Source of the DNA: an uncultured Candidatus Saccharibacteria bacterium
GTDB taxonomy: Bacteria; Patescibacteriota; Doudnabacteria; UBA920; 2-01-FULL-46-14
DNA length: 64,000 nucleotides
Direction: 5' to 3'
NCBI GenBank assembly: GCA_964396685.1
Contig: CAYNFS010000003.1
Coordinates: 110 to 64,109 of the forward strand
The notes under the pieces were generated by a model that made no database searches, was not told the origin of the DNA, and saw only the letters and a program-made list of their open reading frames with translations. The stretch's first letter is position 1, and every line of letters starts with the position of its first letter. The translations under genes and the position numbers were made by a program. Below are positions 1,580-64,000 of this stretch, piece after piece.

Positions 1580-1870
1580 CTACTTAATGCCATAAAATTT
1601 TCGTAAAACCTGATTAAATCCGCCGTTTTTATCCGCAAGCTCCCTGGCTCCTCTTGTCACTGTGGCCACGCCTACATGCAGATTTCTGGCCACCCGCCGC
1701 TGGGGAATTCTCTGGTAAAGCTGTTTAACAATCTGCCAGCGGACAGCCACATCCATAAACTCATAGGGGGAGAGGAGGTCTTGGAGAAACTCATAAAGAA
1801 GCTTTCGGTCCTTTGCGACTTCATGCACTACACCGGTCAATTCCCATTCATATTCCTTATTCGCCCGCAT
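1580..1870 (-). CDS. TrpR-like DNA-binding protein (YerC/YecD family)
   Basis: 96 aa. LLSPYEFMDVAVRWQIVKQL...RNLHVGVATVTRGAREL resembles the Trp-repressor fold HTH. Confidence 0.5.
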   Translation of the reverse strand: MRANKEYEWELTGVVHEVAKDRKLLYEFLQDLLSPYEFMDVAVRWQIVKQLYQRIPQRRVARNLHVGVATVTRGARELADKNGGFNQVLRKFYGIK

Positions 1871-1953
1871 AATAAGTGTACTAGTACACTAACACCATGC
1901 GAAAAACTTGTCAAGCGCTGGAAACTTTAGACCTTTCCTGCTATAATACCTTT

Positions 1954-7066: not shown

Positions 7067-7792
7067 ATGTCCGGACATAGCAAATGGGCGCAAATCAAAA
7101 GGCAAAAGGCCGTCGCTGACAAGAAAAAAGGACAAATTTTTTCCAAATTGATTAGAGAGATAACAATCACGGCCAAACAGGGAGGAGACGACCCAGTCAG
7201 CAATTTCCGCCTGCGCATTGCCATAGAAAAAGCTCGGAGCGCCGGCATGCCCAGCGACAATATCGAGCGCGCGATCAAACGCGCCACAGGCCTTGAAGCA
7301 GACACTCAAGCGCTTGAAGAAGCAATCTACGAAGGGTATGGCCCCTTTGGCACGGCGTTTTTGATTGAAGCCGCCACTGACAACAAAAACCGGACCGTCA
7401 ATGAAATCAAACATGTCTTTGCTAAACACGGAGGCACTCTGGGAAGTTCGGGCAGTGTCATCTGGCAGTTTGTCACCCGCGGACAGATTTTGGTGGAACG
7501 GGAACCAGATAAAGATCTTTCGGAGCTTGAACTGAAAGCCATTGACGCCGGGGCGGAAGACGTCCGGGAATCACCCGATGGGTTGGAAGTTTATACCCTG
7601 CCTTTGGATCTGGAAAAAATTAGAGAAGCTTTGCTACAAAATGGCGCCCGAATCGCTCAAGCGCACGTGATAAAAGAAAGTACCCGGGGAATTGATTTGA
7701 CTCCCGAACAAAAACCGAAAGTTGAAGAACTTTTTGCCGAGCTTGAGGAGCACGAGGACGTGATCGCGGTGCACACGAACGCAAACCTCTAA
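7067..7792 (+). CDS. YebC/PmpR family DNA-binding transcriptional regulator
   Basis: [43 protein letters not shown] is the conserved YebC N-terminus. Confidence 0.9.
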   Translation: [241 protein letters not shown]

Positions 7793-7819: not shown

Positions 7820-8302
7820 ATGATTATTTTAGGCATTGACCCCGGCACAGCAACAACCGGCTATGGAATTATCCAAATAAAAAAGGGTGCGTCACCCCGC
7901 CTTATTGAATATGGCTGTATCACCACCCCTAAAAGAAACAGACCGGAGAAGCGCCTTACCGAAATTTATAAGGATCTCAAAAAACTTATCAAAAAACACA
8001 AACCCGGTCTTCTGGCTGTTGAATCTTTATTTTTTTTCAAGAATCTGAAAACCGCGATTTCTGTGGCGCAAGCAAGAGGAGTGGTGCTTCTTTGCGCTTC
8101 TGAATCAAAAATTAAAATTGCAGAATTTGCTCCGCTTGAGGTCAAAATGTCGCTCACAAGCTACGGCCGAGCCGACAAGAAACAAGTGCAATATATGGTG
8201 AAAAAGCTTTTAGGGCTTAAAAACGCGCCCAAGCCCGACGACGCCGCCGACGCTTTGGCAGTGGCAATCTGCGCTTCCTCCCGCCTGTCATTCCAGGCTT
8301 GA
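7820..8302 (+). CDS. ruvC: Holliday junction resolvase RuvC
   Basis: MIILGIDPGTATTGYGII, with a C-terminal KPDDAADALAVAICA. Confidence 0.9.
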   Translation: MIILGIDPGTATTGYGIIQIKKGASPRLIEYGCITTPKRNRPEKRLTEIYKDLKKLIKKHKPGLLAVESLFFFKNLKTAISVAQARGVVLLCASESKIKIAEFAPLEVKMSLTSYGRADKKQVQYMVKKLLGLKNAPKPDDAADALAVAICASSRLSFQA

Positions 8303-8386: not shown

Positions 8387-9508
8387 TTACCACGGCAGAT
8401 GTATCTGCGGATTGAATCCGAGATTCCGCAACCACTCCACACCTTCAGAGAAGGAACGCGAGTACACTGGAAATTGCGCGAATCCGCCTTGTTTTGTGTA
8501 GCCACCAACTTCCGTGGAGCAGTCGAGCGTGAACATACAACCTCCGCCTTTTGCACAACGCGCGCTTAAATCAAAATGTTCGCGGGTGGAGAACCACGGC
8601 AGAGCTTCTGGAATCGCGAGCGAATACAACGCGCCCACGAACTCGTACTCTTTGTCGCCGTAGAATGCTGGAGCAGTATGCATTGGAGTACCAGCACCGT
8701 ATTTCCAACGCGGCATACCGAAGATGATGTTTGCTCCATACTCCTTACGAAGATATAGCGCATGGTCAAGCGTGACCAGCGCATCAAAGCGCCAATCAGC
8801 CAATCCGCCGAGAAACGCAACGCCAGCAGTTTTGATGCCGCCTTGTAACGCATGATCGTGCGCGTCAAGGCGATACTGCATATTGGCTTTCGGGCCATGC
8901 GAATGTATTTCCTTGTACGATTCGGCAGCATAGGTTTCCTGCCAGACAATCGTGAAGGTACATCCAGCGTCCGCAAGCAAACGGTAGTCGTCAACTTGCT
9001 TGAGCGGAAAAAAGTTAATTCCCACATTCCGCGCGGCCGCCTTTCTTGTTGCGATAACCATCCGAGCGGCTTTTTGACCGTTCAGTAACTCCGGGTCTGT
9101 TGCCGCAACAAGCTCAATGTCGCCGTATCCAAGCTGAAGCAAGTGAATCGCTTCTTTGCGAACTTCTTCAGGATTCATGCGTATGAGTTTATCGTAGGGC
9201 ACGTTGCCGTGCCGCCATGGGCAATACACGCAGTAGTCGAGACAGCCGCCTATGCTTGGGTCGCCGTCAGATATGTACAGCGGCGGCATAAGAAACAACC
9301 GCTTCTGCCAAACCTCATCACGCCGACGAATTGCTTCCGCTATAACTTCCAGACGAAATGGTTCGTGGTCAGAAGCCAAGATCAGCTGTGCCAGATTTGG
9401 TAAATCAAACGATTCCCTCCGTAAGAGGTCGCCGACCTTATCCGCTGATCGTGTCTCCCAAATCAACAACTGTGCCAGTTTTTCTGGCTCAAAATACTCG
9501 CTAAACAT
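8387..9508 (-). CDS. radical SAM enzyme (CX3CX2C; BioB/ThiH/HydE-like), specific function unknown
   Basis: 373 aa. CLDYCVYCPW radical-SAM cluster motif at about residue 100, with a second Cys cluster CAKGGGCMFTLDC near the C-terminus. GC content is visibly higher than in the neighbouring genes. Confidence 0.6.
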   Translation of the reverse strand: MFSEYFEPEKLAQLLIWETRSADKVGDLLRRESFDLPNLAQLILASDHEPFRLEVIAEAIRRRDEVWQKRLFLMPPLYISDGDPSIGGCLDYCVYCPWRHGNVPYDKLIRMNPEEVRKEAIHLLQLGYGDIELVAATDPELLNGQKAARMVIATRKAAARNVGINFFPLKQVDDYRLLADAGCTFTIVWQETYAAESYKEIHSHGPKANMQYRLDAHDHALQGGIKTAGVAFLGGLADWRFDALVTLDHALYLRKEYGANIIFGMPRWKYGAGTPMHTAPAFYGDKEYEFVGALYSLAIPEALPWFSTREHFDLSARCAKGGGCMFTLDCSTEVGGYTKQGGFAQFPVYSRSFSEGVEWLRNLGFNPQIHLPW

Positions 9509-14212: not shown

Positions 14213-14518
14213 TGGTTCGCATAAACCAAACTGTCTATTCGCTTTCCCATTTTTTCTTCCTCCATTCCGCCGGGAAGCGATTGCCTCCGGGCTTCAATCT
14301 ACCTACGCACCAAAGGATGGTGCCTCCGTTTCACGGAATTGTGAAAGAACAAAAAACTGACCTTTCAAGAGGCCAGGTGGAGAAGCTTGAGTGGGGAAAC
14401 TAATGACTAATAATCGACAACTGATAACCAAACTTAAGCGCCTGGAAACTGGCCTCTTGGGAGAAGCCGTAGTAATAGGCGCGGACTAGTTGAAATGTTT
14501 TGATTATCATACTTTTCT

Positions 14519-14544
14519 GGATTCCCGCCTTCGCGGGAATGACA
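14519..14544. repeat. hairpin repeat GGATTCCCGCCTTCGCGGGAATGACA (GGAATGAC palindromic repeat family)
   Basis: Inverted repeat TCATTCCCGCG/CGCGGGAATGA. Related copies at 17808, 19081, 31442, 48199 and 52579. A second hairpin CCGCCCCT...AGGGGCGG follows at 14561-14582. Confidence 0.7.
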
Positions 14545-17601: not shown

Positions 17602-18969
17602 TTGTACGAATATACGAATATTTTAATTCTCTTGGGGCTTGGTTTTTTTGCACTGACCGCAATCTTTCGTCGTGAGCGGGCTTTGTACCTGATCATCCTC
17701 CTGCTGCCAACTTATCAAATCCGCTTCAAAGTTGCGGGCATCCCAATGACTTTTCTGGAAGGGATGATTTTGATTCTCGCCATTGTGGAATTTAGCTCGC
17801 GGGTCTTGTCATTCCCGCGAAGGCGGGAATCTAGCGAGTGGATTCCCCGATCAAGTCGGGGAATGACATTGTTTTTTATTTTTCTTTTCCTACTTGCGGC
17901 ACTAATTTCTGTTTCTACCGGCCCCAATCTCGCAAAGGCGGCCGGCATTTTCAAAGCCTATTTTTTTGAGGCTGTCCTGTTCTGCTTTCTGGTCTTGCTA
18001 ATTATTGACACTCAAAAAAAGTTACGGCTCCTTTTCAAAGCCTTGACAATACTCGCGCTTTATCTCTCGATCTTTGGCATCTACCAGTTTATTACCCTTC
18101 ACGGCCTCCCTTACAACTGGTGGGCGGTGGATGTTGAAAGCAGGCGAATTGTTTCGGTTCTAAACCACCCAAACGCTTTGGCTTTACTTTTAGGGCCTCT
18201 TCTGGCTATGTTAATCTTTCTGCCGTATAAGAAAAAACTTGAATGGCTCACCATAACCCTAGCCGTTGTCACCCTCTACCTCTCTTTCTCCCGCGCCTCT
18301 TGGCTGGCATTAATAACTACCATTATCGTATTTACCCTTGTCTCCTGGCTCCGACGTTACGTCGCGAGCTGGCGAGGAGAGAGACTGAAAGAGAGGTCAA
18401 GGCTTGGCTTAAAACTTACCGCTGTGACATTGGGGATAATTTTTATTATCATCATTATTCCATTTTCCAGAACCAAAATTTTAGACCTCGCGCGCGGCCA
18501 GGATCCCTCACAGCAAAACCGGTACGTGCTATGGTCTGCGGCGGCCGATATGCTAAAAAAAAACCCTTTTTTGGGGGTGGGGCTGATGGGCTTTCACGAA
18601 GCCTACAAAAATTACCCCCTTGGCCCTGATCAGGTCGTGCAAAACTACCCACATAATTTCTTTTTGAATTTCTGGGTAGAGACTGGTTTGCTAGGACTGA
18701 TTTCAATAATCGGGCTTTTGATATTATTCTTCAAAAAAGTAACAAAACTCCTCTCCACAGCCACCTCTGGATTTTCTCCCCCTGCCCGAGGGGGAGACGA
18801 AGAGGGGGTGGGAGAGAGGTCACAAATGGCTCCTTTCGCTCTCGCTGCAGCCGCCGGCATGAGCATGATCATTCTTCACGGCCTTGTTGACGTCTCCTAT
18901 TTCAAAAACGATCTGTCGGTTTTGTTTTGGCTAATTTATTCACTTCCTTTCCTGTCATTGCGAGCGTAA
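17602..18969 (+). CDS. O-antigen ligase/polymerase-like polytopic membrane protein carrying in-frame repeat insertions
   Basis: At least 10 hydrophobic helices and a Wzy_C-like loop region. The translation contains SFPRRRESSEWIPRSSRGMT (from the hairpin repeat) and FSPPARGGDEEGVGERS (from the CTCCCCC...GGGGGAG palindrome). Confidence 0.5.
   Translation: MYEYTNILILLGLGFFALTAIFRRERALYLIILLLPTYQIRFKVAGIPMTFLEGMILILAIVEFSSRVLSFPRRRESSEWIPRSSRGMTLFFIFLFLLAALISVSTGPNLAKAAGIFKAYFFEAVLFCFLVLLIIDTQKKLRLLFKALTILALYLSIFGIYQFITLHGLPYNWWAVDVESRRIVSVLNHPNALALLLGPLLAMLIFLPYKKKLEWLTITLAVVTLYLSFSRASWLALITTIIVFTLVSWLRRYVASWRGERLKERSRLGLKLTAVTLGIIFIIIIIPFSRTKILDLARGQDPSQQNRYVLWSAAADMLKKNPFLGVGLMGFHEAYKNYPLGPDQVVQNYPHNFFLNFWVETGLLGLISIIGLLILFFKKVTKLLSTATSGFSPPARGGDEEGVGERSQMAPFALAAAAGMSMIILHGLVDVSYFKNDLSVLFWLIYSLPFLSLRA
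17808..17868. repeat. two tandem hairpin repeats (GTCATTCCCGCGAAGGCGGGAATC + GGATTCCCCGATCAAGTCGGGGAATGACA) inside a CDS, frame preserved
   Basis: Same family as 14519-14544. Translated as SFPRRRES...IPRSSRGMT within the ORF 17602-18969. Confidence 0.7.
18774..18798. repeat. palindromic element TCTCCCCCTGCCCGAGGGGGAGA inside a CDS
   Basis: CTCCCCC/GGGGGAG inverted repeat, in frame. A sister element sits in tal at 49150-49172. Confidence 0.6.
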
Positions 18970-31441: not shown

Positions 31442-31511
31442 GTCATTCCGGGCTTGATCCGGAATCCAGATTTTGGCTTATTTACTGGATTCCCGCTTTC
31501 GCGGGAATGAC
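31442..31511. repeat. two hairpin repeats (GTCATTCCGGGCTTGATCCGGAATC ... CTGGATTCCCGCTTTCGCGGGAATGAC)
   Basis: Same GGAATGAC palindromic family as 14519 and 17808. Confidence 0.7.
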
Positions 31512-33079: not shown

Positions 33080-33484
33080 ATGAGTAAGGCAGAAATTATC
33101 GCAAAAGCCCTGAAGAAGAATGGGGTGCTTGCGGATTTCGATCCGGAGAATAGGGACGATATGCTTGGTTATTTCCTGGTCATTCGTCAGCCCGGCAAAC
33201 CAGTCTTTCTGGTGGTTGATGAGTCTGGATTACAAAGCCATGCTTCAGTGGTCGCGGCTCTTCGTCGACTGGAAGTTTTACCTCACATGCCCGGGCAAAG
33301 TTTGCCCGAGTCAATAATCCGGTGTATTCGTGGAGGCACATACTCTTATAACTGGATTAAGACATGGCCCATGGAGGGGAATTGGACCATCGGGATGTCT
33401 AGCGGCGACTATGGGGTGGTTTGGGAAGACCTCCGGGCTCGGATAATCGACATTGTGAGCGGTGGGAAGCAGTGGCAGAAATGA
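33080..33484 (+). CDS. hypothetical protein
   Basis: 134 aa with RBS GGAGGAAGAAATG and no recognisable motif. Followed by the degenerate 26-nt motif and the terminator module at 33487-33550. Confidence 0.35.
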   Translation: MSKAEIIAKALKKNGVLADFDPENRDDMLGYFLVIRQPGKPVFLVVDESGLQSHASVVAALRRLEVLPHMPGQSLPESIIRCIRGGTYSYNWIKTWPMEGNWTIGMSSGDYGVVWEDLRARIIDIVSGGKQWQK

Positions 33485-33548
33485 ATCGCTAACAGACCAC
33501 AGAAAGCTTACTCGCCTGAATTCTTTGAAGGGTTCCGGCGGGCTTTTT

Positions 33549-33683
33549 TTATCCGCCTCCGCTCCTGCGACCACGGGCTTGATCGGTGGATGAAGGGCGG
33601 TACGGATAAAGCACGTGAGGGCAAAACATCGTCTGGCTTCGGCGGATGCAGCAGCGAGATTCTAGGCGGATAAATAAGGGCGG
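33549..33683 (+). repeat. conserved structured element of about 135 nt, copy A (TTATCCGCCTCC ... GGCGGATAAA)
   Basis: About 75% identical to 51935-52066. The 5' TTATCCGCC can pair with the 3' GGCGGATAA. Shared internal blocks GTGGATGAAGG, TAAAGCACGT and GCTTCGGCGGATG(C/T)AGCA, with compensatory changes in the hairpin regions. Confidence 0.6.
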
Positions 33684-33728: not shown

Positions 33729-35246
33729 CTAGCGGCGATGTTTGAAGTTTTTCAAAAATTCAAGCGCCAAGCGTACGCCGACACCGGTTGCACCTTTCGG
33801 CCGATAAGGTTTTTCGCGCGTGGTCCAGGCGACCCCGGCGATGTCGAGATGAATCCAGGGATAGCTTACAAAGTTTTGCAGGAAAAGCGCGGCGTTAACG
33901 GCGTCTCCCTGCCGAGGAACTGCGCCGACATTTCTTAAATCCGCAAAATCGCTTTTGATAAATTGTTCGTATTCTTTGTAAAGCGGCATTAGCCAGATTT
34001 GCTCGCCGGTTATTTGTGCGGCATTTTTTAATTGCGGCACCAACCTTTCTTGATTGGTAAATGCGCCGATTAGATCGTCTCCCAGTGCTACCACGATTGC
34101 CCCGGTGAGTGTGGCAAAATCAATAACGAGGACGGGCTTGTATTTTTTGGCGTAATCTAAAGCATCGGCCAAAACCATTCTTCCTTCGGCATCAGTATTT
34201 ACGACTTCAATGGTTAGACCTGCACGGGAACGGACGATATCTCCCGGTTTGATCGCTTTGCCCGAGGGAAGATTTTCTGTGGCAGGGATAAGCCCCACCA
34301 AGTTTATGGGGAGTCGCAGCTCGCAGGCGGCTTTGATTGTGGCAAGGACTGTGGCTCCTCCCGCCATGTCATATTTCATTTCCTCCATTTTCTCCGAAGG
34401 CTTGATAGAAATGCCGCCGCTGTCAAAAGTGATTCCTTTGCCCGCCAGGACAACTGTCGGGGCTTTTTTCTCCGCGTGATATTCCAAAACAATAAATTTT
34501 GGCTCCTCATCCGAGCCTTGAGCTACAGCCAGCACGGCGCCCATGCTTTCTTTTTGTAAATCCCCCTTCCCCAAAACTTTGGCTTTGAGAATTTTCGAGT
34601 GCTGTTTGGCCAGATCTAAAGCGTGTTTGGCTAAGTGCTGTGGTGTTGCAACATTTCCCGGGTGGTTTCCTAAATCCCTGGCGTAGTTTGCGGCTTGAGA
34701 CAAAGTATGCGCGACGGTTGCCGCTTTGAGGACCTTGGTTTTGTCGCGGGAGTTGCTTAAAACAAACTGAATTTGTGTTAAGGCCGCGGGTTTTTCTTCT
34801 TCGCCCCGCTTCTTATATTCTGTAAATTTGTAATTCGCGAGCAGTATTCCTTCTGTGAGAGCTTGAGTGGCTGATTCGACCGAGACTTTGCTGGGCAAGG
34901 TTTTTATCAAGGCGATCGCAATATCATTGACTTTGAACTTTTGAGCAACCGGAGCCGCAGCGCTCATGGCCGTTCTTGCTTTCTCCAAGTTATATTCGGA
35001 TTGTTTGCCCAGCCCCAAAAGCAAAACGCGCTTAGCCGCAGTCCTTTTGCCGGTAAACATCGCTTGGGTTTCCGCGAGCTTGGGCTTGAAGTCACCGCGG
35101 CTGATTAAATCGGAAATTTCTTCTCCCAGGGCACGGTTGAGTTCTTTGGCTTTTGGCTCAAGTTCCTTGGCATCTTCAAAAAGAGGGACGATTAGAAGAT
35201 CGGTTTGGATTTGTGATAAAGGCCTGGTGGTGGTTTGAAAATTCAT
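33729..35246 (-). CDS. pepA: leucyl aminopeptidase (M17 family)
   Basis: NTDAEGRMVLADAL and VVNTDAEGR-type M17 active-site motifs. Confidence 0.9.
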   Translation of the reverse strand: MNFQTTTRPLSQIQTDLLIVPLFEDAKELEPKAKELNRALGEEISDLISRGDFKPKLAETQAMFTGKRTAAKRVLLLGLGKQSEYNLEKARTAMSAAAPVAQKFKVNDIAIALIKTLPSKVSVESATQALTEGILLANYKFTEYKKRGEEEKPAALTQIQFVLSNSRDKTKVLKAATVAHTLSQAANYARDLGNHPGNVATPQHLAKHALDLAKQHSKILKAKVLGKGDLQKESMGAVLAVAQGSDEEPKFIVLEYHAEKKAPTVVLAGKGITFDSGGISIKPSEKMEEMKYDMAGGATVLATIKAACELRLPINLVGLIPATENLPSGKAIKPGDIVRSRAGLTIEVVNTDAEGRMVLADALDYAKKYKPVLVIDFATLTGAIVVALGDDLIGAFTNQERLVPQLKNAAQITGEQIWLMPLYKEYEQFIKSDFADLRNVGAVPRQGDAVNAALFLQNFVSYPWIHLDIAGVAWTTREKPYRPKGATGVGVRLALEFLKNFKHRR

Positions 35247-44601: not shown

Positions 44602-45555
44602 ATGGACCGAAATTTAGCTCTCGAATTTGTCCGGGTTACAGAAGCGGCCGCGATTGCGGCCGCTAAATGGGTTGGCCGGGGGGACAAGCACGCGGCCGAC
44701 CAAGCGGCGGTGGATGAGATGCGCGCGCGGTTTAACCAAATTGATTTTGCGGGAACGGTTGTGATAGGCGAGGGCAAGAAAGACGAAGCGCCTGAACTTT
44801 ATACGGGTGAAAAAGTCGGTGCGGGCAAAGCCCCGGAAATGGATTTGGCTGTGGATCCGCTGGAAGCAACAGATAGCGTAGCGCACGGCCGTCCCAATGC
44901 CATCTCGGTCATTGCGGCAGGCGCCAAGGGAAGCTTGCTTTCCGCCCCCGATACCTATATGGATAAGCTTGCAGTGGGCCCGAAGGCGAGAAATGCAATT
45001 GATTTAGATGCGCCAGTAGCAGACAATATCCAGAAGACGGCAGAGGCTCTAGGCAAAGAGGTTTCCGAGATTACAGTCATGGTTTTGGACCGGGAGAGGC
45101 ACCAGAAACTTATGAAAGAAATAAGGGCAGTAGGTGCCCGGGTTCGCACAATTACTGATGGCGACGTGGCAGGGGCGATTGCTCCCTCGTTTCCTGATTC
45201 GGGAATCGACATGCTGATGGGTATTGGCGCTTCCACCGAGGGAGTTTTGGCGGCGGTTGCTGTCAAAATTTTGGGCGGGGAACTGTTTTGTCGGTTCAAA
45301 CCAAAAAAACCGGAAGACGAAGAAGCGATTAAGGCAAGCGGAATCAAAGACATCAATCAAATTTTGTCAGCCGAGGACTTAGCCCATGGCAAAACTTTGA
45401 CCTTCACCGCCACCGGAGTAATTGACGGCCCGCTTTTGGAGGGAGTTAGATTTACCAACCGTCACATCATCACTCATTCGGTTGTTATGCGGGCTTTATC
45501 TGGTACAATTAGATACATTACTACGCATCATCATCAGACAAGTAGCAAGTTGTAA
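44602..45555 (+). CDS. glpX: fructose-1,6-bisphosphatase class II (GlpX)
   Basis: LALEFVRVTEAAAIAAAKWVGRGDKHAADQAAVDEMR and downstream metal-binding regions are characteristic of GlpX. Confidence 0.85.
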   Translation: MDRNLALEFVRVTEAAAIAAAKWVGRGDKHAADQAAVDEMRARFNQIDFAGTVVIGEGKKDEAPELYTGEKVGAGKAPEMDLAVDPLEATDSVAHGRPNAISVIAAGAKGSLLSAPDTYMDKLAVGPKARNAIDLDAPVADNIQKTAEALGKEVSEITVMVLDRERHQKLMKEIRAVGARVRTITDGDVAGAIAPSFPDSGIDMLMGIGASTEGVLAAVAVKILGGELFCRFKPKKPEDEEAIKASGIKDINQILSAEDLAHGKTLTFTATGVIDGPLLEGVRFTNRHIITHSVVMRALSGTIRYITTHHHQTSSKL

Positions 45556-45588
45556 GTAGTAAGCAATAAGTTAGGTGGGGAGAAAGTT

Positions 45589-48244: not shown

Positions 48245-48257
48245 TAGACTATCTGAT

Positions 48258-48362
48258 GAGGCCGACAAACTTGAAAACCAGAATTTTTTTGGATTCCGGC
48301 GATCCTGACGAGACCCGGGAGGCTTTGGGCTTGCTTGGATTTCTTGACGGGCAGACGACCAA
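48258..48362 (+). pseudogene. duplicated 5' fragment of the transaldolase gene (about 85% identical to 48870-48975)
   Basis: ATGAGGCCGACAAACTTGAAAACCAGAATTTTTTTGGATTCCGGCGATCCTGACGAGACCCGGGAGGCTTTGGGCTTGCTTGGATTTCTTGACGGGCAGACGACCAATC aligns with the genuine tal start. The reading frame hits a stop shortly after the duplicated part. Confidence 0.6.
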
Positions 48363-48417
48363 TCTTCTATTTTCGTTATGCTTTGCTTCAAATCTAAAAT
48401 TTTGCTAACATGTAAAT

Positions 48418-48663
48418 ATGCTAACTGAATTTGTTATTAAAAAATTAAAAATCGCCAAGTACAAGCTTCTTAAGGACAAAACTTATTTTGGTGAAATTCC
48501 TGGTCTACAAGGAGTGTGGGCAAACGCACGAAATTTGGAAGACTGCAGAAAACAGCTCCGGGAAGTGCTGGAGGAGTGGGTACTGCTTCGGATTCGGGAT
48601 CGTCAAAGCGTGCCCGGATTGTATATTCATGCCAATCGCCGCCAAATAGTGAAGCATGCCTAA
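48418..48663 (+). CDS. hicB: HicB-like antitoxin
   Basis: 81 aa, TYFGEIPGLQGVWANARNLEDCRKQLREVLEEWV fits the HicB N-domain. Overlaps hicA by 8 nt. Confidence 0.55.
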   Translation: MLTEFVIKKLKIAKYKLLKDKTYFGEIPGLQGVWANARNLEDCRKQLREVLEEWVLLRIRDRQSVPGLYIHANRRQIVKHA

Positions 48664-48868
48664 AAGTATTTCTTGGAGAAAGTTAGTGCAAAAGTTTAGG
48701 CGTTTGGGTTTTGACGGACCGTATTCTGGCGGCCGTCATTTGTTTATGATTAAGGGAACCTTAAAGCTTCACATCCCGAATCCGCATCGCGGCAATATTT
48801 CTAAACACCTCCTTGCAGAGATTTTGAGACAAGCCGGTATTCCTTCTGCGGACTGGGAACAAGCGTAA
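48656..48868 (+). CDS. hicA: HicA-family toxin
   Basis: 70 aa, WRKLVQKFRRLGFDGPYSGGRHLFMIKG...IPNPHRGNISKHLLAEILRQAGI is the HicA/YcfA pattern. Confidence 0.7.
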   Translation: MPKSISWRKLVQKFRRLGFDGPYSGGRHLFMIKGTLKLHIPNPHRGNISKHLLAEILRQAGIPSADWEQA

Positions 48869-48869
48869 T

Positions 48870-49799
48870 ATGAGACCAGCAAATCTCAAAACCAGAATTT
48901 TTCTTGATTCAGGCGATCCTGACGAGACCCGGGAGGCTTTGGGCTTGCTTGGATTTTTTGACGGGCAGACGACCAATCCGAGCTTGATTGCCAAAAATCC
49001 GGAAACGGCCGGGAAGAAATTTACTCGCGAGGAGATTTTGGATTTTTACAAAAAAGTCGTGCAAGAGATTTCGGGTTTGATTCCCGAAGGCTCGGTTTCG
49101 ATAGAGGTTTATGCGGATTTCTCGACACCCGGCCTTCCTACCCCCTCTTCATCTCCCCCATCGCATGGGGGAGAAAAAAGATTGTCCATGCTCGAACAGG
49201 CGAGGGGGATGTTTCATTGGATTCCGAATGGTCATATCAAATTTCCAACCACGACAGAAGGGCTTAAGGCGGCAGAGCAAGCGGTCAAGGAAGGCATGGG
49301 AGTCAACATGACTCTGTGTTTTTCGCAGGAACAGGCGGCCGCGGTTTATGCTGCAACCAGAGGGGCCCAGAGAGGGCAAGTTTTTGTCTCGCCATTTGTG
49401 GGGAGGCTGGATGACCGAGGCGAGCGGGGGATGGATTTGATCGCGAATATTATTAAGATGTATAAACAGGGAGACGGACATGTGGAGGTGCTCACGGCGA
49501 GTGTGAGGAACATTGAGCATGTTTTGGAAGCGCTGCGATTAGGGTCGGATATTATTACGATGCCATTGGGGGTGCTCGAAAACTCCAAATCACAAATAAC
49601 AAATCCCAAACAAATCCCAAATTTTCCGCCCAAGGCGGATCCACCCCTGGCGGACAAATTCCAAATTCAAAACTTGAAGCCAATAGATTATAAAGAGCTT
49701 GATTTAGATAAATCCTGGCAGGAGTATGATATCGGGCATGAGCTGACGGACATCGGAATGGAGAAGTTTTCCGAGGATTGGAACCGATTAATAAAGTGA
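48870..49799 (+). CDS. tal: transaldolase / fructose-6-phosphate aldolase family, with in-frame insertions
   Basis: IFLDSGDPDETREALGLLGFFDGQTTNPSLIAKN and FVSPFVGRLDD (Schiff-base Lys region). At 309 aa it is about 90 aa longer than typical short-form Tal/FSA. Insert sequences PTPSSSPPSHGGEKRLS and SKSQITNPKQIPNFPPKADPP. Confidence 0.85.
   Translation: MRPANLKTRIFLDSGDPDETREALGLLGFFDGQTTNPSLIAKNPETAGKKFTREEILDFYKKVVQEISGLIPEGSVSIEVYADFSTPGLPTPSSSPPSHGGEKRLSMLEQARGMFHWIPNGHIKFPTTTEGLKAAEQAVKEGMGVNMTLCFSQEQAAAVYAATRGAQRGQVFVSPFVGRLDDRGERGMDLIANIIKMYKQGDGHVEVLTASVRNIEHVLEALRLGSDIITMPLGVLENSKSQITNPKQIPNFPPKADPPLADKFQIQNLKPIDYKELDLDKSWQEYDIGHELTDIGMEKFSEDWNRLIK
49150..49172. repeat. palindromic element TCTCCCCCATCGCATGGGGGAGA inside tal
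   Basis: CTCCCCC/GGGGGAG inverted repeat, in frame. Sister of 18774-18798. Confidence 0.6.
49581..49668. repeat. CAAAT-rich tandem repeats and a CCGCC...GGCGG hairpin inside tal
   Basis: CACAAATAACAAATCCCAAACAAATCCCAAATTTTCCGCCCAAGGCGGATCC...CCAAATTCCAAATTCAAAAC. Same CAAATCCCAA unit as in tkt at 42892. Confidence 0.6.
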
Positions 49800-49831
49800 G
49801 TAAGCAAGTAGGTGTGTAAGTTGTAAGAAAA

Positions 49832-50188
49832 ATGCTAATAAAAACGTTTCGTGATTTGATTGCCTGGCAGAAAGCTCATAATCTTACTCTAGGAGTCTAT
49901 AAAATAACTGATAAATTTCCCAAAACCGAGACATTTGGTTTAACTAGTCAGATGCGTCGTTGCGCTGTTTCTGTGCCTTCTAATATCGCAGAGGGGTTTA
50001 AGCGAAGAACAAAAAATGATTCGGTTCATTTCTACAACATTGCCGAGGGAGCATTAGAAGAATTAAAGTATCAATTGCTGCTTGCGAGAGACCTAGGCTA
50101 TATTTCAGATAAAGAATATCGCTCGTTGAATGATTTAGCCGATGAAGTAGGCAAACTCACCAACGGTTGGAAGCGGGTACAAAAATAA
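49832..50188 (+). CDS. avd: four-helix-bundle protein of the 23S-rRNA-intervening-sequence / Avd family (DGR accessory variability determinant-like)
   Basis: 118 aa, WQKAHNLTLGVYKITDKFPKTETFGLTSQMRRCAVSVPSNIAEGFKRRT...FYNIAEGALEEL, the TIGR02436/PF05635 pattern to which DGR Avd proteins belong. Confidence 0.7.
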   Translation: MLIKTFRDLIAWQKAHNLTLGVYKITDKFPKTETFGLTSQMRRCAVSVPSNIAEGFKRRTKNDSVHFYNIAEGALEELKYQLLLARDLGYISDKEYRSLNDLADEVGKLTNGWKRVQK

Positions 50189-50357
50189 CTTATCAACTTA
50201 TACGCTTTACACGCTTACGAACTTACTCATTGGGCCCAACTGGCTCTTGATTTTTTTATGCGCTTCTGTTAGATTAAGCTATCTTTGCTGAAGTTTCTGG
50301 CAGAGAACCCGGCCACGGGCAGTGGCGATTCCATGTGGCGATTAGCCACAAAAAGGA

Positions 50358-51388
50358 GGAACACCGTGAGACACGGAAACGTTAAGATCATGCAGGTACA
50401 CGCCGTTCTGGACAGACTGAACGGCGAAACGGGAGTTGAAGCCATTCTGGCAGGCTCGGAAATTGAGCCGGTGAAGTATGGCGACGGTACGCTCGGGCAG
50501 TATGAGGAATTCCGCAACAAACTGCCTGAAGGGGTCTGGGAAGGCGTTCTGGCTGATCAGTTGGAGTTGGTTATGGAGGGGCCAACCAAAGTCGTTGTTC
50601 GCACAAAAGAACAACTCCTGGTGGACACCGACGGCCGGTTCGTTTTCCGAAACATCAGGCAGGTTGGCCAGCCGAACTGGGCCTATGGTTTTGGGCGGGC
50701 CATTCACCCAAGCTATACCGAAGCGTTGGAGCGCTTGGAGCACGCATTCCAGCGCAGAATTGGTGTCTCGGCCGCGGACTTTGAGAGACGCGCCGAGAGC
50801 AAGAAAGCGGAGATAGTCAACAACCCGCTTTTCGTCAACCTCTTCCTAGGCCAGCACGCCAGGCCCTTTGCCATCGCTCTGCCACAGATGACTGTTCCCG
50901 AAAAGGGAGGGCTTGGCGAGCTGCTGGCGCGCACCATCATCCGGGCTGCGAAGCTGGGCTATGTCCGGCAGTATCCCGAGCGGCAGTTTAAAGACCATAG
51001 CGATACGTTGATCGGGGAAGTCGAAAGCTTCCCTGGCAGTCGGCAGGAGCGATTCATCGAGGCGCTTCGGCAGGGGCCAGTCGTGGCTTGGATCTTCATG
51101 AACTGCCTGCAGGGAGGGTCGATCAACGCGGCCAGAGAGCTCATCAAGACTCTCCCCGAGGAGTATATGCTCGGCGGTACTTTGGTCAATGCCCCAGTGG
51201 TCGCCGCTTATCCAGAGATCGCGGCCGCGAGCGTGAGGAATCCGCTGTATTTCTGCGCGGCTGATGTTTTCCGGCGCGGCTTTTCGCTCTACCTCCTTCC
51301 GCACGGCGGCAGCGTCGGCTTCGATGGCTGGGCCGTCCTTGGCGACTGCGACGGCCATTGCTCTGCCTCCGTCGCCGTGCTCGCGTAG
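50358..51388 (+). CDS. GC-rich hypothetical protein (likely foreign), between avd and the RT relic
   Basis: About 62% GC against roughly 45-50% in the flanks. The start is ambiguous: GTG at 50358 after RBS AAGGAGG, whereas the track ORF begins at 50285. No motif recognised and no DGR variable-region signature at its C-terminus. Confidence 0.4.
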
Positions 51389-51870
51389 GCCTTTGATCCC
51401 TTGGGAAGTTGGTTCTTTTGGATCCTTTGTTTTTTGGGATTCTTTAAGACCAATTCCCCCGGGGTTATTTTTTATGATATAATTTTGGGCAGAGAGTAGG
51501 TTAAAGCGGATTGGTTCAAGGATCAATCCCGCCGAAATCGGTGTGAGTTTGATTTACCAGAATTTTTGTGATCACGGTTACAAAAAGCGCGTAAAAAACT
51601 TAAAGGCACTACTTGTCTGTTTCTAATGCCTGACTAAATTGGGGCAGGGAGCGGTATCAGCCGCCGAGCTGTTGGCCGATTTCCTGAAGGTGCGTTTGGA
51701 GAAGAAGATATTTTTTGTTATCCAGACACCTCAAATCTCTGGCAATTCTAACGAATATTTTCTGAGCGTCCAGTTTTATACTTGCTCGTTTGAAAACAAA
51801 ATCAAAAATAGCCGGTTTTTATGGCTGATTGAAGAAATTATTGAAAATTTTTCTGTGGATAAAATCGGAC

Positions 51871-51880
51871 AGCGGGGGGG
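51871..51880. repeat. G10 homopolymer at the frame switch inside the RT
   Basis: CAGCGGGGGGGGGGCTTT. The RT reading frame shifts exactly here. Confidence 0.8.
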
Positions 51881-51939
51881 GGGCTTTATATGGATTGCCA
51901 ATCGGCAATTTAACCTCGCAAATATTCGCAAACATTTAT

Positions 51940-52160
51940 CCGCCTCCGCCGAATACCACGGGGTTACCCGTGGATGAAGGCGGAAGGCGTAAAGCACGTA
52001 AGCTAAAGCATAAGTCAAGCTTCGGCGGATGTAGCAACGACAGCCCAGGCGGATAAACCCGCCTTAGCTTTAGGGAAGGCGGGTATGGAGGGTACCACGG
52101 CTTCCCGGCCGTCGTAGCCATAGGCCACTATGGCGGAGTCGGCTAGCCGTGGGGCTCCAT
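51940..52160 (+). mobile_element. 221-nt insertion splitting RT motif 4 from motif 5. Contains copy B of the conserved structured element (core 51935-52066)
   Basis: Removing 51940-52160 joins ...SQIFANIY to LNELDQFV..., the contiguous DGR-RT consensus. The insertion starts TTATCCGCCTCC and contains GGCGGATAAA, like copy A at 33549-33683. Confidence 0.6.
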
Positions 52161-52578
52161 TTGAATGAATTAGACCAGTTTGTAAAACACCAGCTTCGAG
52201 TAAAATATTACTTTCGCCATGCTGATGATTTTGTTATAGTTCATAGTGACGACACTCATTTGCAGGGCCCAACCTGCTCAATTCAGAGGTTTTTGAAAGA
52301 CGATCTTGATCTGGGGCTGCATCCTAAAAAAATCGTCATCAGAAGACTCCACCAAGGCATAGATTTTTTGGGTTATGTTATTTTACCTCATCATATCGTA
52401 TTGAGGACGAAAACCAAAAGAAGAACATTTAGAAAACTTTTTGAAAAAAGAGGAATGCTCGAAAGGGATAAGATAAGTTTTGAGAGTTATAATCAATCAA
52501 TACAGTCTTATTTGGGCATGTTGGAGCATTCAAATGGATATAATTTGAGTAATATAATTCAGAATAATTTTTCAGGAG

Positions 52579-52606
52579 CTGGATTCCCGCTTCCACGGGA
52601 ATGACA
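52579..52606. repeat. hairpin repeat CTGGATTCCCGCTTCCACGGGAATGACA at the RT 3' end
   Basis: GGAATGAC palindromic family. Supplies the terminal codons (GFPLPRE) and the stop of the RT ORF. Confidence 0.6.
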
Positions 52607-52618
52607 GGATTAATTATT

Positions 52619-53575
52619 ATGATGCGCGATGCGATTCTGAATTTTCCAAAACAATTTAAATACCGGCCCAAGATCGAGAATGGGCCGGTGAAGAAGTATA
52701 AGCGCTATGTAGTGGCTGGCATGGGCGGCTCGCATCTGGCGGCGGATATTTTGAAAAGTCTTAAGCCGGATTTGGATCTGACAGTGCATATGGACTACGG
52801 ATTGCCGGAAAAAGATTTGCAAAAAACCCTTGTAATCGCGAGTTCCTATTCGGGCAATACCGAAGAAACGATTGACGCTTTTGAGCAGGCAAGAAACAAG
52901 GGCTCGGCGTTGGCGGCGGTTGCTTCCGGAGGGAAGCTCATTGAGTTAGCCGTTCAGCACAAGGTGCCCTATATCCTGTTGCCGCAGGCAGTAAGCGAGC
53001 CGCGCATGGCTTTGGGTTTGAGCCTTAGAGCTCTTCTTAAACTTACCAAGCAGAACGAGTTTTTGAAGGAGTCGGCTCTGCTTATCAAAATTTTAAAGCC
53101 GCAAGAACTTGAGCTTCAAGGCCGGGCGCTGGCGGAAAAGATAAAAGGCAAGGTGCCGGTTATTTATGCTTCCGCGCGCAACGAGGCCGTTGCTTACAAT
53201 TGGAAAATCAAATTCAACGAGACCGGGAAAATTCCAGCTTTCTGCAACGTCCTGCCCGAGCTCAATCACAATGAAATAAATGGATTCGATATTAAGGAGG
53301 CGACTAAATCTTTGGGCACTTGGGCCCACTTTATTTTCCTCAAAGATTCTGAAGATCACCCCAGAAACCAGAAGCGAATGGAGATTACCGCCAAACTTTA
53401 TCAGGAGCGCGGGCTGCCGGTAGAAGTTATCGAGCTTTCCGGAGACTCAAGACTTGAACAAATTTTCAAATCCCTCCTGCTAGCGGACTGGACAGCCATA
53501 TATACAGCACAAAATTACGGGCTCAAACCCGAAGGCCAGCCCATGGTGGATGAGTTTAAGAAGCTAATTATCTAG
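52619..53575 (+). CDS. bifunctional phosphoglucose/phosphomannose isomerase (SIS-domain PGI/PMI family)
   Basis: YVVAGMGGSHLAADIL, LVIASSYSGNTEET and a C-terminal region typical of archaeal-type PGI/PMI. Confidence 0.75.
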   Translation: MMRDAILNFPKQFKYRPKIENGPVKKYKRYVVAGMGGSHLAADILKSLKPDLDLTVHMDYGLPEKDLQKTLVIASSYSGNTEETIDAFEQARNKGSALAAVASGGKLIELAVQHKVPYILLPQAVSEPRMALGLSLRALLKLTKQNEFLKESALLIKILKPQELELQGRALAEKIKGKVPVIYASARNEAVAYNWKIKFNETGKIPAFCNVLPELNHNEINGFDIKEATKSLGTWAHFIFLKDSEDHPRNQKRMEITAKLYQERGLPVEVIELSGDSRLEQIFKSLLLADWTAIYTAQNYGLKPEGQPMVDEFKKLII

Positions 53576-53608
53576 GAGTAAGCTGTAAGTATTAAGCAAT
53601 AAGTTTAG

Positions 53609-63134: not shown

Positions 63135-64000
63135 TTATTTTAACGATCTGATTTTGCCTGCAAGCTTTTCAGCGCGCAGTTTGGTTGTTTGGTAATCAGT
63201 TTTTAGTTTTTCCACGACCTCGGCAGGCGCTTTTTTGAGAAAATCTTTTTTTTCAAGCTGGGCAGAGAGTCGTTCAATTAGCCCGCTTGTTTCCTTGAGC
63301 TCTTTTTCGGTAAGAGCTTTTTCTTTCTTGGGATCAAAATCGGGAATGACGAGATAAACTTTTGTATCTTGCCAAATGAAATAGGGCATTTTCTTGTCTG
63401 ACGGCATGGAAGCAAAATTGATTTTCACGCGGGCAAGTTTTTCGATAACGGCTGCTTGGTCTTGAATCCAGGAGAGATTTTTGGAAAGTTCCAGATAGCA
63501 GGCGTAAATTTGGGCCGGATCCTGGCGGTATTCCGAGCGCAGGTTGCGCAAGCCCGTGATCAGGGATTGGAGTTTGGGAAAGCCAGCTTGTAGTTTGTAG
63601 TTTGCAGTTTGCAGTTTTGGGGGAAGGGGATATTCCTGAATCATTAAAAAGTCATCTGAAATTTGCAACCAGATATGCTCTGTCACAAACGGGATAAAAG
63701 GGTGCCAGAGTTTAAGCAATGTTTGCAAGATGTGTTGAAGGATTGCCCGAGTGGCGGTTGGGTCCCCGCCTCCGCGGGGATGCCGATTAAGCGCCATTTT
63801 TGATATTTCCAGATACCAGTCTGCGAGTTCGTGCCAGGTGAATTCGTAGAGGTTCTCCACGCTTTGCGAAAATTCGTATTTTTCCATGTTAACGTTGTTT
63901 TGTTTTATGAGTTCGGCAAGTCTTGAAAGGATCCATTCATCAGCCACGGTTTTGGATTTCAGGTCCTTAATCTGCGATCTCGAATCTTTAATCTGTTCTA
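63135..64000 (-). CDS. valS: valyl-tRNA synthetase, C-terminal part (anticodon-binding + coiled coil); the N-terminus lies beyond the window end
   Basis: ...LLKLWHPFIPFVTEHIWLQI... and the terminal coiled coil KLKTDYQTTKLRAEKLAGKIRSLK. The ORF stays open to position 64000. Contains an in-frame heptamer repeat at 63585-63630. Confidence 0.75.
   Translation of the reverse strand, partial: EQIKDSRSQIKDLKSKTVADEWILSRLAELIKQNNVNMEKYEFSQSVENLYEFTWHELADWYLEISKMALNRHPRGGGDPTATRAILQHILQTLLKLWHPFIPFVTEHIWLQISDDFLMIQEYPLPPKLQTANYKLQAGFPKLQSLITGLRNLRSEYRQDPAQIYACYLELSKNLSWIQDQAAVIEKLARVKINFASMPSDKKMPYFIWQDTKVYLVIPDFDPKKEKALTEKELKETSGLIERLSAQLEKKDFLKKAPAEVVEKLKTDYQTTKLRAEKLAGKIRSLK
63585..63630. repeat. 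heptamer tandem repeat (TGTAGTT/TGCAGTT x4) inside valS
   Basis: CTTGTAGTTTGTAGTTTGCAGTTTGCAGTTTTGG, translated on the minus strand as KLQTANYKLQAG. Confidence 0.65.

Follow-up and report, generated by a model that had tools for sequence, protein, structure and literature searches.

The stretch described here, positions 49832–52606 of the window (the whole 64,000-nucleotide DNA that was analysed), belongs to a Candidatus Doudnabacteria genome. It carries on the plus strand a gene for a 118-residue protein, a GC-rich gene for a 340-residue protein, a conserved spacer and two pieces of a reverse transcriptase (RT) gene separated by a 221-nt insertion, and on the minus strand the 3' part of an avd gene (Table 1). 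The original prediction took this set of features for a decaying diversity-generating retroelement (DGR). In a DGR the RT together with Avd copies the RNA of a template repeat (TR) with misincorporation at template adenines, and the cDNA replaces a variable repeat (VR). Decay of a DGR is supported by the data presented below, as the RT remnant is of the DGR type and its closest homologues reside in cassettes with canonical adenine-specific TR/VR pairs. The inventory of parts had to be changed, however: instead of two DGR parts present out of three, one is intact (the target gene with its VR), two are remnants (avd and RT) and one, the TR, is gone, while the promoter and the leader that belong to the TR are intact.

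The window was compared with related loci, labelled L001, L002 and L019–L026 (the labels P0001, P0003 and P0004 denote RT homologues). L019 belongs to assembly GCA_040960375.1 and L020 to GCA_034680565.1. L001 and L002 were found via P0004 and P0003, respectively, which are the closest full-length homologues of the RT. The ancestral order of the cassette is seen in six relatives: target gene (+) with the VR at its 3' end, promoter and structured leader, TR, avd (−) and RT (+). In L001 and L002 a target of ~340 aa lacking a Pfam match (that of L002 is cut by the contig start) is followed ~340 nt downstream by a 124–126-nt repeat of the target 3' end, beyond which lie the opposite-strand avd and then the RT gene. 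Mismatches between the two copies of this repeat fall almost exclusively on adenines of the downstream one, as is the hallmark of DGRs, and in the TR/VR pairs of L001, L002, L019, L020, L022 and L023 as many as 14–25 of the 15–26 mismatches are located at TR adenines.

Table 1. Positions of the features of the locus and of the corresponding features in related loci (aa, amino acids; IVS, intervening sequence).
Locus	Feature	Position	Strand	Description
Window	IVS-type four-helix-bundle gene	49832–50188	+	Intact, 118 aa; Pfam PF05635, TIGR02436
Window	DGR target (variable-protein) gene	50366–51388	+	Intact, 340 aa; start GTG 50366; ribosome-binding site AAAGGAGG at 50352–50359
Window	VR, now without template	51266–51391	+	Last ~41 target codons, stop and 3 nt beyond
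Window	Spacer preceding the TR in relatives: promoter and leader	51389–51645	+	Conserved; cut by deletion 1 at 51645/51646
Window	Promoter and leader	51475–51615		
Window	Remnant of the cognate bAvd-type avd	51645–51797	-	Last 51 codons; tblastn with Avd of L001 and L002, blastn to avd regions of L019 and L001
Window	RT remnant, middle piece	51790–51939	+	~Codons 150/160–197 of relatives; ..NKIKNSRFLWLIEEIIENFSVDKIGQRGG, G10 (51874–51883), ALYGLPIGNLTSQIFANIY (motif 4)
Window	RT repeat tract	51874–51883		G10, out of frame (+1; G9 would be in frame); locus under study
Window	Structured insertion between RT motifs 4 and 5	51940–52160	+	221 nt; boundaries ambiguous by dinucleotide AT
Window	Insertion, module A	~51935–52058	+	Including flank TTTAT; 11-nt terminal inverted repeats TTTATCCGCCT / AGGCGGATAAA
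Window	Insertion, hairpin	52059–52084		
Window	Insertion, long hairpin	~52086–52160		Follows the preceding hairpin
Window	RT remnant, C-terminal piece	52161–52604	+	LNELDQFVK...FRHADDFV (motif 5), thumb, stop; Pfam RVT_1
L001	RT repeat tract	~4470–4480		G8, in frame; chosen as full-length RT match
L002	RT repeat tract	~1870–1890		(AG)8, in frame; chosen as full-length RT match
L019	RT repeat tract	~8915–8925		G9, out of frame (+1); chosen via target protein
L020	RT repeat tract	~9440–9450		G10, out of frame (+2); chosen via target protein
L022	RT repeat tract	~4008–4018		G11, out of frame (+1); chosen because RT called as short open reading frame (biased)
L023	RT repeat tract	~3718–3727		G10, out of frame (+1); chosen because RT called as short open reading frame (biased)
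L001	Promoter and leader	3177–3308		
L002	Promoter and leader	536–691		
L019	Promoter and leader	7611–7735		
L020	Promoter and leader	8151–8276		
L021	Promoter and leader	1738–1861		

Target gene, leader and the missing segments of the cassette

The GC-rich gene had been placed at 50358–51388 with a GC content of 62% and was thought to occupy the normal place of the TR. Its start is corrected here to GTG 50366, since position 50358 is out of frame; this GTG is six bases after AAAGGAGG, the start called by NCBI is ATG 50390, and the measured GC content is 59%. The gene is the target gene of the DGR itself and not a foreign insert. Its product aligns end to end with the target protein of L001 (25% identity, E 4e-20), is 34–70% identical to eight database proteins and has been modelled by AlphaFold (67 sequences) with a predicted local distance difference test score (pLDDT) of 96.3. 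The C-terminus of the protein has a C-type-lectin fold, and the VR lies at the 3' end of this lectin-fold target, as expected for a DGR. The target genes of every relative are 8–13 points richer in GC than their surroundings, so that the high GC content, being common to the whole family, is no mark of foreign DNA. With 487 cluster representatives obtained in the profile search, the target family is sizeable, and it has no Pfam model.

The last ~120 nt of the target gene align with the VRs of L001 and L002 and are 71% identical over 126 nt to the TR of L019. The differences between the window and L021, the closest relative, are concentrated in this region. The earlier statement that a TR/VR pair is not recognisable therefore holds for the TR and fails for the VR. 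No TR was found by an adenine-tolerant scan with the VR in the 64-kb window and 14.5 kb more of contig JACQJJ010000008.1 of assembly GCA_016205105.1 (78.5 kb in total), and self-BLAST of the window likewise revealed no adenine-biased repeat. The TRs of L001, L019 and L023, which served as the positive control, were recovered by the same adenine-tolerant scan with perfect scores.

The ~250 nt past the target stop codon are conserved in L001, L002, L019, L020 and L021, as follows from the alignments. This spacer harbors an extended −10 promoter TGATATAAT (consensus TGnTATAAT) at 51475–51483 and, downstream of it, a structured leader RNA of ~125–155 nt in the different loci (~51492–51615 in the window, GAGAGUAGG...CACUACUUG); the same layout is observed in L022 and L023. 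In the consensus fold of the leader, which was derived from the same six sequences that were used to score the pairing, 96% of cells are paired and compensatory changes are found in 12 of the 30 pairs. None of 500 shuffled alignments reached the observed values, and only 35–51% of cells were paired in slid controls. The leader gave no Rfam match. It is possible that this conserved leader located 5' of the TR is an undescribed RNA component of the DGRs of the candidate phyla radiation (CPR) clade. In the prototype DGR of Bordetella phage BPP-1 (Mtd, Avd, TR and bRT) the order is mtd-avd-TR-brt on a single strand and a structured spacer is situated 3' of the TR; in contrast, the CPR clade has avd on the opposite strand and its conserved structured RNA is positioned 5' of the TR.

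Comparison with L019, the closest complete locus, demonstrates which segments of the cassette are lacking. By blastn, 50862–51625 of the window corresponds to 6973–7745 of L019. The next segment of L019 (7746–8017), which holds the TR (7837–7962), has no counterpart in the window, pointing to a deletion of ~270 nt at 51645/51646. Window positions 51646–51785 correspond to L019 8018–8157, i.e. to the 3' part of the minus-strand avd. L019 8158–8833, where the RT gene up to codon ~160 and the 5' two thirds of avd are located, again has no counterpart, which gives a second deletion of ~680 nt at ~51788–51791. Further on, 51790–51940 corresponds to L019 8834–8981, and after the 221-nt insertion homology resumes at L019 8979. 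Both junctions (GGGGCAG/GGAGCGG at 51645/51646 and that at ~51788–51791) show microhomology of 2–3 nt. The sequence of L021 departs from that of the window at ~51640, at the first deletion junction, and continues with a sequence resembling the stretch before the TR of L019.

The avd remnant is 57–59% identical to the C-termini of Avd from L001 and L002 (tblastn, E 2e-15 and 1e-13). Its first ~68 codons are lost in the second deletion, and the codon of a conserved Trp is changed from TGG to TGA at 51657–51659 (LGG*YRSL aligned to LGGWQKSL). Faint RT motifs 1–3 had been read on the plus strand of this very region (51639–51790). This assignment has to be abandoned: the segment is the antisense 3' part of avd (51797–51645, −), and RT homology begins only from ~51790. 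The likeness of GQGAV to GKGTH, by which 51639–51790 (+) could be considered as degenerate RT motifs 2–3, is likewise ruled out by the blastn and tblastn match to the antisense avd.

In the relatives avd (−) and the RT gene (+) are arranged back to back, their starts being 21 nt apart in L001 (3925–3947) and overlapping by 15 nt in L019 (8356–8370). Because the starts adjoin or overlap, the promoter of each gene must sit inside the other gene.

The reverse transcriptase remnant, its repeat tract and its insertion

The RT reads GLPIGNLTSQIFANIY and then, across the 221-nt insertion, LNELDQFVK...FRHADDFV. In the three-frame translation the sequence ...SVDKIGQRGG runs into the G10 tract and is continued by ALYGLPIGNLTSQIFANIY in the +1 frame. 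The SQ in motif 4, the ADDFV in motif 5, the frame switch at the G10 tract with its +1 shift and the insertion between motifs 4 and 5 were all part of the original prediction and are confirmed here. The middle piece is matched by L019 8834–8981 (83% identity) and L001 4394–4538 (blastn), and the C-terminal piece is identical to NCBI HY396_01565 (P0001) except for the start codon. Removal of one G and of the 221 nt (51940–52160) produces a single open frame whose product matches RVT_1 (8e-9), and the protein junction at the insertion point is ungapped in comparison with both 8ub7 and the relatives. Among solved structures PDB 8ub7 is the best match of the repaired RT (1.4e-15), while the best group II intron RT is matched at 6e-9. 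The chain of 8ub7 is named only "Reverse transcriptase" in the database; we take it to be Bordetella bRT, the RT of a DGR. The remnant is closer to DGR RTs than to those of group II introns, in agreement with its LPIGNLTSQ, which follows the pattern [LIV]GxxxSQ of motif 4 in the DGR clade. In NCBIfam and PADLOC, which have no DGR RT model, the best matches were RTs of group II introns and of UG17, all far below the cut-offs.

A complete RT should possess the Asp of motif 3/A and the YxDD of motif 5/C. In the window motifs 1–3 are deleted, the frame is shifted, the 221-nt insertion separates motifs 4 and 5, and motif 5 contains HADD for YADD, the Tyr at this position being 98% conserved. Otherwise the remnant (51790–52604) is well preserved: compared with 87 homologues, it departs from the consensus at 3 of the 57 columns with a conservation of 90% or more (one of the three being the Tyr to His change in the YADD box), and the homologues themselves depart at 1.8 columns on average and at 5 at most. 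Because substitutions at conserved RT positions are so few, the sequence indicates that the damage to the RT is structural and recent and did not result from long mutational erosion.

The repeat tract is native to the RTs of the CPR clade, where pure G8–G11 or (AG)8 is found in the loop before motif 4. The loci listed in Table 1 were chosen in different ways: the window, L019 and L020 were sampled regardless of the RT frame, whereas L022 and L023 were picked for their short-ORF RT calls (ORF, open reading frame). The tract is out of frame in five of the six poly-G loci, including all three that were sampled regardless of frame. In spite of this, L019, L020, L022 and L023 exhibit adenine-specific TR/VR differences, and L019, L022 and L023 have an intact avd as well. 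The 114 closest RT homologues in which motif 4 is recognisable include 28 short ORFs starting in the loop or just after it, at least 11 of which start with repeat-coded residues (7 with G-run-coded and 4 with GA-repeat-coded ones); in-frame forms amount to about 9 with a G-run and 17 with a GA-repeat. The tracts are uninterrupted, though their flanks are only 75–83% identical.

Simple-sequence contingency loci are known to provide phase variation by slipped-strand mispairing, and homopolymers allow transcriptional slippage. The RT-internal G8–G11 or (AG)8 tract resembles such loci in that its length varies among relatives and sets the reading frame. In contrast to them, length variation is seen here between relatives, and ON/OFF switching is putative. 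We would only tentatively suggest, without regarding it as the more probable outcome, that the tract is a conserved hypermutable ON/OFF switch operating by slipped-strand phase variation, or that it is read through by polymerase or ribosome slippage, the mutagenic RT being made only rarely in either case. Homopolymer sequencing error may be an alternative cause of the out-of-frame tracts. In the literature searched, nothing relevant was found on DGR RTs with repeat tracts, frameshifts or phase variation. For the window itself the length of the tract changes nothing, because its RT is dead for other reasons.

Just 5' of the tract, at 51854–51862, there is a perfect nonamer TGTGGATAA (reverse complement of TTATCCACA) which resembles a DnaA box. 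The same string is also present in L001, L002, L019 and L022 (five of the seven loci). It originates from the codons xxT GTG GAT AAA ("VDK") and may simply mirror the conserved peptide.

The 221-nt insertion is highly structured, with a minimum free energy of −120 kcal/mol (z −7.6 on the plus strand and −5.9 on the minus strand). Its first ~124 nt, module A, have a second copy at 33548–33674 with 74% identity, in which the structure is kept, the 11-nt ends, perfect inverted repeats in both copies, are identical and the same TTTAT is found at the 5' flank. This copy is located between the convergent 3' ends of an ORF (33080–33484) and of an M17 peptidase gene (33729–35246, −). The TTTAT at the insertion is native RT coding sequence (ATT TAT; cf. 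L002), which means that the internal AUAAA of the insert is complementary to its target flank. The 3' 102 nt of the insert are unique.

The search for relatives of the insert was negative throughout. None of the 120 closest RT homologues contains it, and nothing similar occurs in the compared related loci or in the contig flanks, the two copies of module A being the only ones in 78.5 kb. Pattern scans gave 5 chance matches in genome contigs (all in high-GC genomes), 9 in metagenome contigs and 2 and 0 in viral contigs, with no true copy among them; no relative was obtained with the translated spurious ORF of the insert or by distant blastn against plasmids and phages. Rfam searches at E<=1 over 8 kb and at E<=10 over 301 nt yielded no match except noise (porB, STnc480).

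A group I or group II intron, a ribozyme and a known small RNA were each considered for the insert and rejected on the Rfam result. A group I intron is further contradicted by the boundaries, since the choices that keep the protein junction end with C, A or T and not with G, and the flanking U pairs with A and not with G. A resemblance to the Azoarcus intron was not borne out.

These results also bear on the idea that the element is still functional through recoding, with slippage at the poly-G restoring the frame and the insert being a self-splicing intron removed from the mRNA. It draws on the out-of-frame poly-G in several otherwise intact relatives, on the exact restoration of the frame upon excision of the 221 nt and on the strong structure of the insert on the sense strand. 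However, the insert has no match to any intron family even at E<=10, none of its three possible 3' ends is G, no homologous RT contains it, and the cognate avd is truncated and carries a stop codon. Because, above all, the TR and RT codons 1 to ~150–160 are missing, recoding is effectively refuted for the window locus, and the chance that it operates here is vanishingly small.

The likeliest reading of the insert, to which we would assign slightly less than even chances, is a small non-autonomous mobile element, similar to miniature inverted-repeat transposable elements (MITE) or repetitive extragenic palindromes (REP), that landed in an already dispensable RT gene. The second copy of module A between convergent gene ends, with the same 11-nt inverted repeats and TTTAT flank, is consistent with such an element, as are the other hairpin repeat families of the genome, some of which lie inside genes. 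On the other hand, 78.5 kb contain only two copies and the public collections none by the patterns tried, the 3' 102 nt are unique, no target-site duplication is evident beyond the ambiguous AT, and no transposase is linked to the insert. Palindromic elements that insert into genes are known, namely the Rickettsia palindromic elements and the REP and MITE families. The insert is akin to them in being short, GC-rich and highly structured, in its inverted-repeat ends, in its position inside a coding sequence and in having another copy between convergent genes, and differs from them in being out of frame, in its two known copies and in its lack of detected relatives. It may represent a novel type of small mobile element, of RNA or DNA, able to pair with the TTTAT at its target.

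The upstream gene and other repeats of the window

The 118-residue protein encoded at 49832 had been assigned to the family of Avd and 23S rRNA intervening-sequence (IVS) proteins, and Pfam confirms this: it matches 23S_rRNA_IVP (PF05635) with 9e-41 and 139 bits (gathering threshold 33.8) over residues 7–112 and bAvd with 1e-13 and 52 bits (above the gathering threshold of 40). The full-length match to TIGR02436 (6.6e-37, 126 bits, cut-off 24) identifies it as a member of the IVS family. For the NCBIfam model NF033474 (DivGenRetAVD) it reaches only 53 bits against a cut-off of 80. The Avd proteins of the clade itself show the reversed pattern (65–68 bits for bAvd, 18–25 bits for IVP), and the 49832 protein is only 20–22% identical to Avd of L001 and L002. 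An imperfect inverted repeat of 23 nt surrounds its gene (49797–49819 / 50207–50229), and a terminator-like hairpin with a T run is present 3' of it (50232–50246). Thus the gene resembles 23S rRNA IVS proteins in its full-length match above the cut-offs and in its inverted-repeat flanks, as found for IVS ORFs, but is situated between the transaldolase and DGR target genes and not in an rRNA gene.

Genes of this type are absent from five of the six related cassettes. Upstream of the target there are rpsT in L001, an aminoacyl-tRNA synthetase gene in L019, pth in L020, a HAD hydrolase gene in L022 and a CopG-type gene in L023. Only L021, a 1.9-kb contig from a separate study whose target is 70% identical to that of the window, has the same order of transaldolase, IVS-type gene, target and leader (~74% nucleotide identity, blastn). 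The 49832 gene is probably a lineage-specific neighbour forming a separate transcription unit, most likely unrelated to the DGR. Its identification as the Avd of the DGR is probably incorrect, considering the low identity, the score below the cut-off, the terminator-like hairpin of its own and its absence from most cassettes.

The 49832 gene was one element of the scheme implied by the original prediction, in which it served as the Avd, the broken RT spanned 51639–52604 and a foreign GC-rich gene had replaced the TR. The bAvd match of the 49832 protein, its position adjoining the cassette and the order of genes in L021, where the target is likewise preceded by an IVS-type gene, are in line with this scheme. 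Against it, the GC-rich gene is a conserved target that carries the VR and shares its high GC with all members of the target family, 51645–51797 is an antisense avd remnant and not RT, and the 49832 protein is remote from the Avd of the clade, falls under the NCBIfam cut-off and has no counterpart in most of the cassettes. The scheme is refuted for the GC-rich gene and for the RT N-terminus, and as a whole it is very unlikely.

GTAAG-rich repeats in inverted orientation flank the IVS-type gene both in the window (49797–49827 and 50189–50229) and in L021 (~44–88 and ~446–480), and similar strings are found in two other intergenic spots (45541–45572 and 53574–53605). Possibly, these repeats are the ends of a small cassette carrying the four-helix gene.

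Several other repeats were noted in the window. A 109-nt stretch from the start of the transaldolase gene occurs twice with 91% identity (48256–48364 and 48870–48978), and the two copies enclose a HicB/HicA antitoxin-toxin pair (48418–48868 between the copies), an arrangement suggestive of an insertion with duplication of its target. The transaldolase ORF comprises 309 aa, with Pfam matches in two separate stretches; small transaldolases have ~220 aa. The ORF contains a GC-rich hairpin element at 49136–49177 (inverted copy at 18772–18813) and a CCAAA-rich low-complexity stretch at ~49585–49680, which are both read in frame and recall the Rickettsia palindromic elements inside genes. A REP-like hairpin family GGATTCCCGC..GCGGGAATGAC occurs at 14513–14543, 17807–17834 (inverted), 31481–31511, 52575–52605 and 63754–63784. 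The last codons of the RT remnant (..GFPLPRE*) lie in the copy at 52575–52605, which also extends over the start of pgi (phosphoglucose isomerase) at 52601.

Probable inactivation of the cassette

Taken together, the locus is very probably a decayed and recently inactivated DGR cassette of a lineage specific to Patescibacteria (CPR). A Patescibacteria-specific group of cellular DGRs has been described as DGR clade 2 (Roux et al. 2021, PMC8144416). With the intact members of this group considered here (L001, L002, L019, L022 and L023) the window has in common the target family, the VR at the target 3' end, the promoter and leader, an avd of the bAvd type encoded on the other strand, and an RT in which LPIGNLTSQ occurs and a repeat tract precedes motif 4. 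Unlike them, it lacks the TR, two thirds of avd (with a nonsense codon in the 51-codon rest, while the intact neighbour at 49832 is of the IVS type) and the first ~150–160 RT codons, has the frameshift, HADD for YADD and the 221-nt insertion in what is left of the RT, and contains upstream of the target an IVS-type gene common only to L021.

The history of the locus can be proposed as follows. In the ancestral working element, as judged from established knowledge of DGRs, the leader-TR RNA would have been reverse-transcribed by the RT with Avd and with misincorporation at adenines, and the cDNA would have replaced the VR, diversifying the lectin-fold tip of the target protein. The first deletion presumably took the TR. 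The second one would have stripped avd of two thirds of its length at the 5' end, eliminated the avd-RT promoter region and removed ~150–160 codons from the start of the RT, which carry motifs 1–3 including the first catalytic Asp. Further lesions are the nonsense codon in avd and, in the RT, the +1 shift in the native poly-G, the replacement of the YADD Tyr by His and the 221-nt structured insertion. As a consequence, mutagenic homing should be impossible from the window locus, and the target would persist as a fixed allele whose VR is frozen.

It was also considered whether the deletions and the insertion could be artefacts of assembly or binning of this metagenome-assembled genome (MAG). 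The locus is known from a single assembly without reads, and homopolymer lengths such as that of G10 are error-prone. The remnants, however, are colinear and oriented as expected, the junctions are clean with microhomology of 2–3 nt, the insertion is exact to the codon and the avd remnant bears an independent nonsense change. Moreover, L021, which is an independent assembly, agrees with the window as far as the first junction, and comparable orphaned targets are found in other assemblies. An artefact is therefore highly improbable.

Several points nevertheless weigh against inactivation as outlined above. The analysis covers ~78.5 kb of one MAG contig, and the VR could still be acted on in trans by a TR, or by a second DGR, at another place in the genome. 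The sizes and junctions of the deletions appear from relatives that are 70–83% identical and not from the true ancestor, and the length of G10 and the junctions rest on a single assembly without read support. Finally, an IVS-type gene precedes the target in the closest relative L021, too, which leaves some, if small, chance that this gene has a role.

The window is not the only locus of its kind. L024 retains the target and the TR promoter up to ...TGATATAATTTTTTTAGAGAGT (1428–1520), beyond which the sequence is unrelated and a glycosyltransferase gene is found. L025 and L026 are targets without avd, RT or leader nearby. As these three loci represent stages of loss, the machinery has recurrently disappeared from around a retained target.

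Taken alone, the locus is a dead DGR of an ordinary kind. Together with its relatives it constitutes a graded series from complete cassettes through the half-deleted window and a target with a promoter stub to bare targets, in which the lectin-fold target genes outlive the mutagenesis machinery. Two lessons for annotation can be drawn: an intact Avd-like gene beside an RT fragment is no proof of common membership, and a GC-rich gene adjoining an RT can be the target of the DGR itself and not foreign DNA. The repeat tract of the RT, the leader RNA and the orphan insert are leads worth following. If confirmed, RT tracts that set the frame and a leader with its own promoter would bear on the regulation and priming of costly mutators in tiny symbiotic genomes.

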